Shown: positions 23,917-24,805 of the stretch, in pieces
How the letters are laid out: each line of letters starts with the position of its first letter
Numbering within the stretch: the stretch's first letter is position 1
Virus record (IMG/VR): IMGVR_UViG_2778261065_000031
Coordinates: 1 to 36,521 of that record
Direction: 5' to 3' (one strand)
Source of the DNA: a virus
Taxonomy: Duplodnaviria; Heunggongvirae; Uroviricota; Caudoviricetes
DNA length: 36,521 nt
The notes under the pieces: generated by a model
The model's input: only the letters and a program-made list of their open reading frames with translations
What the model was told of the DNA's origin: nothing
The model's database searches: none
Translations under genes and position numbers: made by a program

Positions 23917-24805
23917 CGTGTTCACCCTCACGAACTTTCAGGTAGGTATTGTCGTTAAGCAGGAAATCAAATCCCTTTTTGTGCCAGACGGTTCCGCGTT
24001 GATGGTTTGGGCGTTCTTCGAACATCCATCGGCAATTTTCGCCTACGTAGCTCAAATAATTTCTCCAGTCCTGCATCGTGAACCCATGCCCGTCAAGCTG
24101 GCGGGTTATCACTCCGGCTTTGCGCCAGAACGTTCGGATCTGGTTTTTACGCTTGTCATTCAGTGCGCGGATTCTTGGCGCTTCAGGAAGGATTTCGTGG
24201 TAAGCATCGACAACATCCTGACAGCTGACGGGAGGTTTTTTCTTGTCAGACTTTTTGTTTGCTGTGGCACTCTCTAATACGTCAGTATTAGAGATAATAT
24301 TATTATATTCTTTATCTGTGGTAATTTGCTGGTAATCTGCTGGTACAGTATTGCTTACAGGCATTGGTATTGCTGGCTTTGAGGTGGTAATTTGCTGGTA
24401 ATCTGCTGGTACAAAATTTGACTGATAATCGTCATATTTCTCTACCGAGAAAACTGAGAATTTACCGTGTGAAACCCAGTCAATCATGCCGAGTTTTTTG
24501 AACTTTCTAAGCAGGTACTGAACGCGATCTGGTTTGAGTCCTGTTTCAAACGCCAGAGAGTTTCTACCGCCAAGTAGCTTCCCTCTGCCTACCAGAATTT
24601 CTCCTGCGTCAGTCATTACATACTCAGGCGTATGCTTTGCTTTGAGGATTAAGTGAACCCACAGATGCGCTGCTTCTGCGTCCTTGTAAAACGGCACATC
24701 CATAATTTTACGGTGCAGCAAGGCATACCCCTTACCGCTGCTTTGATGCGGTTGTTGTAGCCTTCTGGCCTCTCTGGCTTCGGCTAGATTAGATATGTTA
24801 CTCAT
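23906..24805 (-). CDS. Replication initiator (lambda O-like) containing the origin iterons
   Basis: 299 aa; AAGGAGA SD; position after cII; direct repeats within the ORF encode duplicated [10 protein letters not shown]. Confidence 0.75.
24318..24413. repeat. Origin-of-replication iterons (five copies of about TGGTAATYTGCTGG) beside an AT-rich tract
   Basis: 30-bp direct repeat GTGGTAATTTGCTGGTAATCTGCTGGTACA at 24318-24347 and 24384-24413, plus TGGTATTGCTGG at 24365-24376; AT-rich 24285-24317. Confidence 0.65.

Follow-up and report, generated by a model that had tools for sequence, protein, structure and literature searches.

We analyzed a 36,521-nucleotide (nt) stretch of viral DNA (Caudoviricetes; IMG/VR record IMGVR_UViG_2778261065_000031, positions 1 to 36,521; hereafter, the window), which by its sequence is a P22-like (Lederbergvirus-type) Escherichia coli phage or prophage. 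Its closest overall match is phage IME10, with 95.9% identity across 74% of the first 25 kb. The element under study is a candidate replication origin at 24271–24413, which is located in the middle of a gene that encodes the replication initiator of the same phage. The features of this gene are given below in window coordinates, with lengths in nt, base pairs (bp) or amino acids (aa), iteron units written in gene direction, and domain limits taken from an AlphaFold2 model.

23906–24805, minus strand: replication initiator gene, 299 aa ("O" of HK022/HK620 type; Eru3A of Shiga toxin [Stx] phages)
24422–24733, minus strand: predicted N-terminal winged-helix domain, aa ~25–128
~24236–24421, minus strand: predicted disordered linker carrying the candidate origin, aa ~130–190
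aa ~190–299, minus strand: predicted C-terminal helical domain
24380–24413, minus strand: iteron cluster A, three units at 11-bp spacing, with the exact 30-bp copy at 24384–24413; units GTACCAGCAGA (24402–24412), TTACCAGCAAA (24391–24401) and TTACCACCTCA (24380–24390)
24348–24383, minus strand: 36-bp spacer between the exact repeat copies, setting the clusters 66 bp apart (6 × 11)
24314–24347, minus strand: iteron cluster B, with the exact 30-bp copy at 24318–24347; units GTACCAGCAGA (24336–24346), TTACCAGCAAA (24325–24335) and TTACCACAGAT (24314–24324, core truncated)
24295–24317, no strand: A+T-rich tract by composition, 23 nt, 21/23 A or T
24271–24294, no strand: perfect 24-nt palindrome (inverted repeat), TCTCTAATAC-gtca-GTATTAGAGA on the (+) strand, with 10-bp arms and a 4-nt center

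Anatomy of the candidate origin

The element is built around an exact 30-nt direct repeat, GTGGTAATTTGCTGGTAATCTGCTGGTACA, whose copies at 24318–24347 and 24384–24413 lie 66 bp apart from start to start, as the first-pass annotation of this DNA had reported; an exact repeat of this length is far beyond chance expectation. Tandem Repeats Finder detected an 11-bp period within each 30-bp copy. Read in the direction of transcription, the repeats resolve into six 11-bp units with the 8-bp core [G/T]TACCAGC, which form two triplets sharing a single 11-bp lattice; in each triplet, the third unit is truncated at its 3′ end (TTACCAC at 24384–24390 and 24318–24324). A 13-mer, GGTAATYTGCTGG, is present in four exact copies (24320, 24331, 24386 and 24397), all of them within the two 30-bp units, and no further copy with fewer than two mismatches was found in the 36.5-kb window. 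Likewise, the 36.5-kb window contains no second cluster of cores, just scattered single 7- and 8-mers at about chance level. By reading of the sequence, the units are direct repeats with no dyad within a unit. Because successive units of one cluster fall in three codon phases (0, 2 and 1), the 11-bp repeat is invisible in the protein; what does appear in the translation of the (−)-strand open reading frame (ORF; 23906–24805) is one 10-residue peptide encoded twice, as noted earlier.

The first-pass annotation had counted five copies of a 14-mer and had missed the third, truncated unit of each cluster. One of its five was an "extra half-unit" between the repeats (TGGTATTGCTGG, 24365–24376), which requires a 2-nt deletion and was not found ungapped at ≤3 mismatches. 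At this point, in spacer slot 3, the spacer contains an in-phase, lineage-specific 6/8 core match, AGCCAGCA. As a conserved part of the array, the half-unit was rejected, with its slot scoring 3.05 of 8 across 43 relatives and the 6/8 match being confined to the lineage of the window.

The A+T-rich tract at 24295–24317, which is the presumed DNA-unwinding element, separates the palindrome from the iterons. The 33-nt interval 24285–24317 is 85% A+T, which places it in the top 0.06% among 33-nt windows; its earlier description as a 33-bp AT-rich stretch was correct in composition but took in the right arm of the palindrome (24285–24294). The palindrome itself had been missed, and the element extends past the limits of 24285–24413 originally assigned to it. 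The palindrome arms (24271–24280 and 24285–24294) form an A+T-rich stem in which 3 of the 10 pairs are G-C, and the hairpin has a predicted energy of −7.5 kcal/mol as single-stranded DNA (z = −4.6). Two further observations concern other parts of the window. The most A+T-rich 33-nt stretch of the window (29/33) is located at 1112–1150 and exceeds the origin tract, and 24225–24249 on the (+) strand, opposite the DNA that encodes the lysine-rich segment of the initiator linker, contains another terminator-like hairpin (CTGACGGGAGGTTTTTTCTTGTCAG plus a T-rich tail).

Conservation of the layout among relatives

Homologous genes were gathered from seven phages and 52 genome loci, and the linker-coding DNA was taken from each. 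The relatives considered here are approximately 50 Enterobacterales, in 43 of which the lattice slots were scored against each genome's own core. We found that 45 of 50 homologs have two clusters at an exact 66-bp offset, each composed of three units at 11-bp spacing. Specifically, the slots of cluster A scored 7.95, 7.70 and 7.26 of 8 core matches and those of cluster B 7.91, 7.67 and 5.74, while the spacer slots scored 3.05, 1.42 and 1.84, near background (chance estimate, ~2 of 8). Since slots 0–2 and 6–8 score high and the spacer slots are near background, the conserved number of units is six (3 + 3). The 8-bp cores are lineage specific, with TACCAGC in the window and GTCCAAC, GTCCAGC, TGCCAAC, ATCCAA or TTCCCAG elsewhere. 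The two-cluster, 66-bp layout reaches homologs with ~40% protein identity in many genera, each with a unit sequence of its own that is alike in both clusters. Following the second cluster, the relatives carry 21 to 28 nt at 72 to 95% A+T and then the palindrome. The architecture is thus kept in ~50 relatives despite changes in the sequence of the units, in the palindrome arms and in the encoded peptide. Furthermore, codon differences between the two clusters within genomes comprised 75 nonsynonymous versus 22 synonymous changes. Because these changes are mostly nonsynonymous, conservation of the peptide is unlikely, and by this comparison the constraint is on the DNA and not on the peptide.

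The palindrome was compared in 28 distinct relatives. Pairing was retained in 95.7% of the arm cells versus 60.7% in shuffled controls (0/500 shuffles as high), and sliding the partner by 1 to 3 columns reduced it to 28 to 46%. Compensatory substitutions were found at all 10 pairs, and one-sided (G-T) intermediates were essentially absent. The nearly fixed center (C-T[A/G]A[C/A]-G) is accompanied by at least 17 different arm sequences, and the peptide encoded at the palindrome varies freely among the relatives. Because the symmetry is strictly Watson-Crick, with G-U almost absent, the pattern points to a palindrome that acts at the level of DNA and not as an RNA helix.

Several relatives depart from the 3 + 3, 66-bp layout yet retain the A+T tract and the palindrome. 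L034 (Silvania) and L035 (Leclercia) have TACCAA-type units at an 80-bp offset in a longer linker, L056 has a 55-bp offset, and L060 (a Glaciecola metagenome-assembled genome) has a 12-bp period (CCGACACCCTA) and a 69-bp offset. In the record of phage Stx2 II (AP005154; L010:301-1196), O is listed as a truncated gene (214 aa), and tblastn yields the full protein only in two pieces, a pattern that suggests either a sequencing error or a frameshift located past the origin. The 176-bp origin segment of the window is present in 374 of 5,426 complete E. coli genomes (~7%).

The initiator protein

The AlphaFold2 model, which was built from a 45-sequence alignment of database representatives, predicts with confidence an N-terminal domain containing a helix-turn-helix (helices at residues 81–88 and 92–104) and a beta-hairpin wing, as well as a confident helical C-terminal domain. 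The predicted local distance difference test (pLDDT) score is below 50 over most of aa 135–186. In the model, this disordered segment coincides exactly with the part of the protein encoded by the candidate origin.

The initiator matches phrog_345 (E-value of 5e-87), and PHROG families named "DnaD-like helicase loader" match aa 25–190 (E-values of 1e-20 to 1e-7). No match to Pfam PF04492 (Phage_rep_O) was obtained even at an E-value of ≤1, while lambda O and P22 gp18 match this family at 5.7e-36 and 6.9e-38, respectively, and a BLASTP comparison with lambda O gave no similarity (E-value of 4.7). Sequence homology of the initiator to lambda O was rejected on these two results. P22 gp18 shows a weak similarity confined to the C-terminal domain (25% identity; E-value of 1e-3), and the match to Pfam PF09681 (Phage_rep_org_N) is below threshold (E-value of 0.22). 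A fold search returned generic winged-helix proteins, and a PDB sequence search with the family profile returned a single chance match (E-value of 1.4).

Covariation, module exchange and natural variants

Next, we compared the iterons with the two domains of the initiator across the 43 relatives. Iteron identity correlated with N-domain identity (rho = 0.55; regression weight, 0.83) and had a regression weight of 0.04 with C-domain identity, whereas N- and C-domain identities were uncorrelated (rho = −0.01); common ancestry and physical linkage inflate correlations of this kind. The type of core also tracks the predicted recognition helix, with TACCA accompanying ..QY.., TGCCA accompanying ..KY.. 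and GTCCA accompanying ..KS... As far as these comparisons extend, the unit sequence co-varies with the N-terminal winged-helix domain of the initiator and not with its C-terminal domain.

In comparison with Sf6 and phage L, the DNA identity rises from ~50% upstream (N-domain and iterons) to 93–100% downstream (palindrome and C-domain), the downstream value for Sf6 being 97–100%. The mosaic junction is at gene nt ~505–511, i.e., window ~24296 (24295–24300), on the border of the A+T tract and the palindrome. Because of this sharp jump in identity, two exchangeable modules can be distinguished, one comprising the N-domain and the iterons and the other the palindrome, the C-domain and the helicase.

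The number of clusters also varies. Prophages of E. coli (L065:1501-2532) and E. albertii (L066:1501-2466) contain four and three 66-bp units in genes encoding 343 and 321 aa, respectively. The corresponding core numbers are 12 and 9, all placed on the 11-bp lattice of the two-cluster arrays (spacings of 11, 11, 44 and so on), in genes that are otherwise 99% identical. The linker tolerates expansion, the array behaves as a modular unit, and the repeat number is polymorphic among near-identical phages. The occurrence of 2-, 3- and 4-copy variants in near-identical genes also indicates that the array is recombinationally active. Lambda-type Stx phages vary between 4 and 6 iterons (PMC7466680), which the variation in cluster number described here parallels.

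A Dryocola sp. BD626 prophage (L055:1129-2771) carries a chimera. Its first half consists of an HK022/HK620-type N-domain, six GTCCAAC units, an A+T tract and a palindrome, and its second half of a lambda O C-terminal domain (62% identity; E-value of 3e-61). The next gene is a lambda P homolog (49%; E-value of 5e-78). Among the relatives, a lambda P homolog was seen only here, where it replaces the DnaB-type helicase. Judged by its sequence, the chimera places the N-domain/origin module in the exact slot of the origin-recognition half of lambda, within an O-P system.

Existing annotation

At the DNA level, the initiator gene has 99.2% identity with gene O of HK620 and ~99% identity with O of HK022 and of many Stx phages, and its protein is 98.3 to 98.7% identical to O of HK022 and VT2-Sakai. 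The rep_origin feature of the HK620 record (AF335538) maps onto window positions 24318–24413, and the VT2-Sakai record (AP000422) lists "ori iteron 2" and "ori iteron 1" at the equivalents of 24318–24347 and 24384–24413. Sf6 (NC_005344) and Salmonella phage L (MW013502) have putative origins at the equivalent position in genes that are 65 to 66% identical, and the phage L origin has been described as six imprecise 11-bp repeats (PMC8022706). The element is, therefore, already known and has been carried as a predicted feature from the HK022, VT2-Sakai and HK620 genome records onward. The public annotations end at the repeats; the A+T tract and the palindrome are left unmarked, as is the third unit in both clusters. 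We found no substantive difference between the window and the HK620, HK022, VT2-Sakai, Sf6 and L origins, which represent the same element with the same helicase partner; in Sf6 and L, the layout of six 11-bp units is the same and the unit sequences are different. The earlier claim of an origin embedded in the initiator gene in a lambda-like layout is supported both by the annotation of HK620, VT2-Sakai, Sf6 and L and by the comparison of relatives.

Interpretation and alternative explanations

We consider it very probable that 24271–24413 is the vegetative (theta) replication origin of an HK022/HK620-type P22-like lambdoid phage or prophage, located inside the linker-coding middle of its own initiator gene. 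Documented above are the anatomy of the element, its conservation, the constraint at the DNA level, the covariation of the units with the winged helix, the disordered linker and the modular exchange, while the steps by which the origin may work are inferred by analogy with lambda O/oriλ, P22 gp18-gp12 and SPP1 G38P/oriL. By this analogy, several N-terminal domains would bind the direct-repeat cores head to tail, roughly on one face of the helix, and the resulting nucleoprotein complex would strain and melt the adjoining A+T tract, with rightward early (pR) transcription through the gene possibly assisting the opening. The C-terminal domain of the initiator would then deliver the phage DnaB-type helicase to the opened DNA, after which host primase and DNA polymerase III would take over. 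An origin would be tolerated within coding DNA because the linker is presumably a disordered spacer that accepts almost any sequence. A more specific proposal assigns the palindrome the role of a structure-specific signal, which after melting of the tract would be extruded as a hairpin or cruciform marking the site of helicase entry or loading, with no dedicated loader. Together with a head-to-tail initiator array of 8-bp repeats on an 11-bp lattice, this would constitute a mechanism distinct from the lambda O-dimer/P/DnaB route; we regard this proposal as doubtful and put it forward tentatively.

Several points weigh against an origin function. The public origin features are labeled "putative" or are based on similarity, and no experimental report of origin activity, initiator binding or unwinding for the HK022/HK620-type family was found in the searchable literature (the earliest genome papers fall outside this scope). 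The initiator-helicase pair corresponds to the "Eru3" replication module of Stx phages, including VT2-Sakai (PMC8044961), and the Eru3 paper does not mention any origin (PMC8044961). The analogy with lambda rests on layout because no sequence relationship of the N-domain to either lambda O or P22 gp18 could be detected. No DnaA box (TTWTNCACA, ≤1 mismatch) is present in 24000–24800, and neither an integration host factor (IHF) site nor a clustering of GATC was found around the origin, with a single GATC at 24526. The lambda origin is not known to need DnaA boxes, IHF sites or GATC clusters either. Physical linkage may account for part of the iteron/N-domain correlation, given that the mosaic junction is found immediately downstream of the iterons, and the identity of the two clusters could be maintained by gene conversion rather than by selection.

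Other explanations were weighed against the same observations. The repeats could encode a duplicated peptide motif in the linker, such as a docking or protease site, with the DNA being functionless. The duplication is visible in the protein, its 22-aa period is found in all homologs, and three- and four-copy protein variants exist. However, the 11-bp sub-repeat is out of frame and invisible in the protein, the peptides diverge between lineages while the DNA lattice persists, and inter-cluster differences are mostly nonsynonymous (75 versus 22). In addition, the segment is predicted to be disordered, and next to the repeats lie an A+T tract and a palindrome whose arms covary; we find a peptide motif very unlikely. 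Alternatively, the repeats may bind the initiator or another protein for purposes of control (autorepression, "handcuffing", incompatibility or a replication-fork barrier), with the true origin located elsewhere. Iteron arrays of plasmids and P1 also have control functions, which counts in favor of this explanation. Similarly, G38P of SPP1 binds two separate sites, the second of which is oriR (PMC6316719). Nevertheless, the 36.5-kb window contains no other core cluster, an A+T tract and a palindrome of the kind typically seen at lambdoid origins adjoin the repeats, and the Dryocola chimera sets the module in the oriλ iteron slot of an O-P system, and we rate a purely regulatory array as unlikely.

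The palindrome and the T-rich tract could instead form an RNA element, i.e., an intrinsic terminator or stabilizer of an antisense (+) transcript or a hairpin in the sense messenger RNA. A simple scan flags 24271–24294 (+) followed by TAATATTATT as terminator-like, and automated "terminator" features overlap the equivalent position in the phage L record. The stem, though, is A+T-rich, with 3/10 G-C pairs, and the 28 relatives are strictly Watson-Crick with no one-sided change and with hardly any G-U, a pattern that a conserved RNA helix would not usually show. Moreover, no promoter-like site was found on either strand in 23800–25400, there is no Rfam match, and the iterons would be left unexplained, so that an RNA element strikes us as highly improbable. 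The same scan for sigma-70 promoter-like sites (23800–25400, both strands) was empty and hence provides no evidence for an origin-internal promoter. Lastly, slippage or unequal crossing-over could have generated the repeat recently as a tandem duplication devoid of function, as the 2-, 3- and 4-copy variants of the 66-bp unit among near-identical genes might indicate. This is contradicted by the family-wide 66-bp, two-cluster layout, which persists down to ~40% protein identity with units that are each lineage's own, and we see almost no chance that it is correct.

As a discovery, the origin matters little, since the element is real but ordinary and already in public annotation. The replication module is, however, shared with VT2-Sakai and other "Eru3" Stx phages (PMC8044961), and phage replication is thought to affect toxin output. 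The comparative anatomy, i.e., the six-core, 11-bp lattice, the helix/core correspondences, the covarying palindrome, the 2-, 3- and 4-cluster variants and the O/P chimera, offers a ready design for tests of the predicted origin.

Comparison with known origins

Similar to oriλ, the predicted origin occupies the central, linker-coding part of an initiator gene that lies downstream of cII and specifies a 299-aa protein of two domains, and the origin has the same order of repeats, A+T-rich tract and palindrome between the DNA-binding and partner-binding domains. The mosaic junction likewise adjoins the A+T tract (misc_recomb features in the lambda record). The lambda and P22 records that we compared both show repeats followed by an A+T-rich tract and then a palindrome in mid-gene, the palindromes being TCAGAGAATTC-tggc-GAATCCTCTGA in lambda and CCCCCT-aa-AGGGGG in P22. 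The systems differ in their units and in their proteins. Lambda O binds as a dimer to each iteron. oriλ consists of four 19-bp iterons with internal inverted symmetry and an A+T tract of ~40 bp, whereas the window contains 11-bp direct units in two triplets. The N-domain of its initiator neither matches PF04492 nor resembles lambda O by BLASTP, and the presumed partner of the initiator is a DnaB-family helicase instead of a lambda P-type loader that recruits host DnaB. By these criteria, the element is oriλ-like in position, domain plan and layout and lies outside the lambda O/oriλ family. The label "O-like" given in the first-pass annotation accordingly fits the gene in position, domain plan and function but not in family, and the proposed parallel with the lambda and P22 origins extends to the order of repeats, A+T tract and palindrome but not to unit length or N-domain family.

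With P22, the window shares the gene order c1/cII, orf48/DUF2740, initiator with internal origin, and DnaB-like helicase (gene 18/gene 12), as well as the order of repeats, A+T tract and palindrome, and the C-terminal domains of the initiators are weakly similar. In contrast, the N-domain of gp18 belongs to the lambda O family (PF04492; E-value of 6.9e-38), and the P22 repeats are ~20 bp long and of other sequence (PMC8022706). The SPP1 oriL lies in gene 38, with G38P as the replisome organizer, G39P as the loader and G40P as the DnaB-type helicase (PMC6316719). The two systems have in common an origin within the initiator's own gene, direct repeats beside an A+T-rich unwinding element, and a phage DnaB-type helicase (PMC6316719); they differ in host clade and in that the window has no separate loader gene between initiator and helicase. 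The origins of iteron plasmids differ from the predicted origin in having units of ~17–22 bp instead of 11 bp, and, unlike them, the array of the window is inside coding DNA and without a nearby DnaA box. Such plasmids (pSC101, R6K, RK2, P1 and F type) resemble the predicted origin in pairing helically phased direct repeats with winged-helix initiators that bind them and with an adjacent A+T-rich unwinding tract.

Gene neighborhood

Near the origin, the minus strand is organized as a lambdoid early-right operon, with the following genes around the initiator gene.

25700–26401, plus strand: cI-like repressor
Between the cI-like repressor and cII in the operon listing: cro
24977–25273, minus strand: cII (Pfam Phage_CII)
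24798–24944, minus strand: DUF2740 ORF (hkaW/orf48), 48 aa, between cII and the initiator gene
22480–23916, minus strand: phage DnaB-family replicative helicase gene ("P" of HK620, gp12-like, Eru3B), 478 aa
21803–22404, minus strand: two ORFs of 125 aa (phrog_343) and 68 aa (phrog_1165), between the helicase gene and ninB

The helicase gene and the 3′ end of the initiator gene share 11 nt. The helicase matches TIGR03600 (phage_DnaB; E-value of 1e-175) as well as Pfam DnaB and DnaB_C, in agreement with the HK620 annotation, and is the presumed partner of the initiator C-terminal domain. The two ORFs at 21803–22404 occupy the position of ninA in HK620, and neither resembles a helicase loader. 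The DUF2740 ORF is called a "tail protein" in PHROGs and several RefSeq phage records; this label is doubtful because the ORF sits in the early operon, and it looks like a propagated misannotation.

A scan for transfer RNA and transfer-messenger RNA genes returned none, and an Rfam scan at gathering thresholds gave no match anywhere in the window. The region between cII and the DUF2740 ORF (24941–25028 on the (+) strand) can be aligned with the lambda and P22 oop promoter/terminator region, in which the ACTGGATCAATCCACAGGAGTAATTATG block is conserved, and is closed by a strong terminator-like hairpin at 25001–25028. This region probably encodes an OOP-type antisense RNA against cII.

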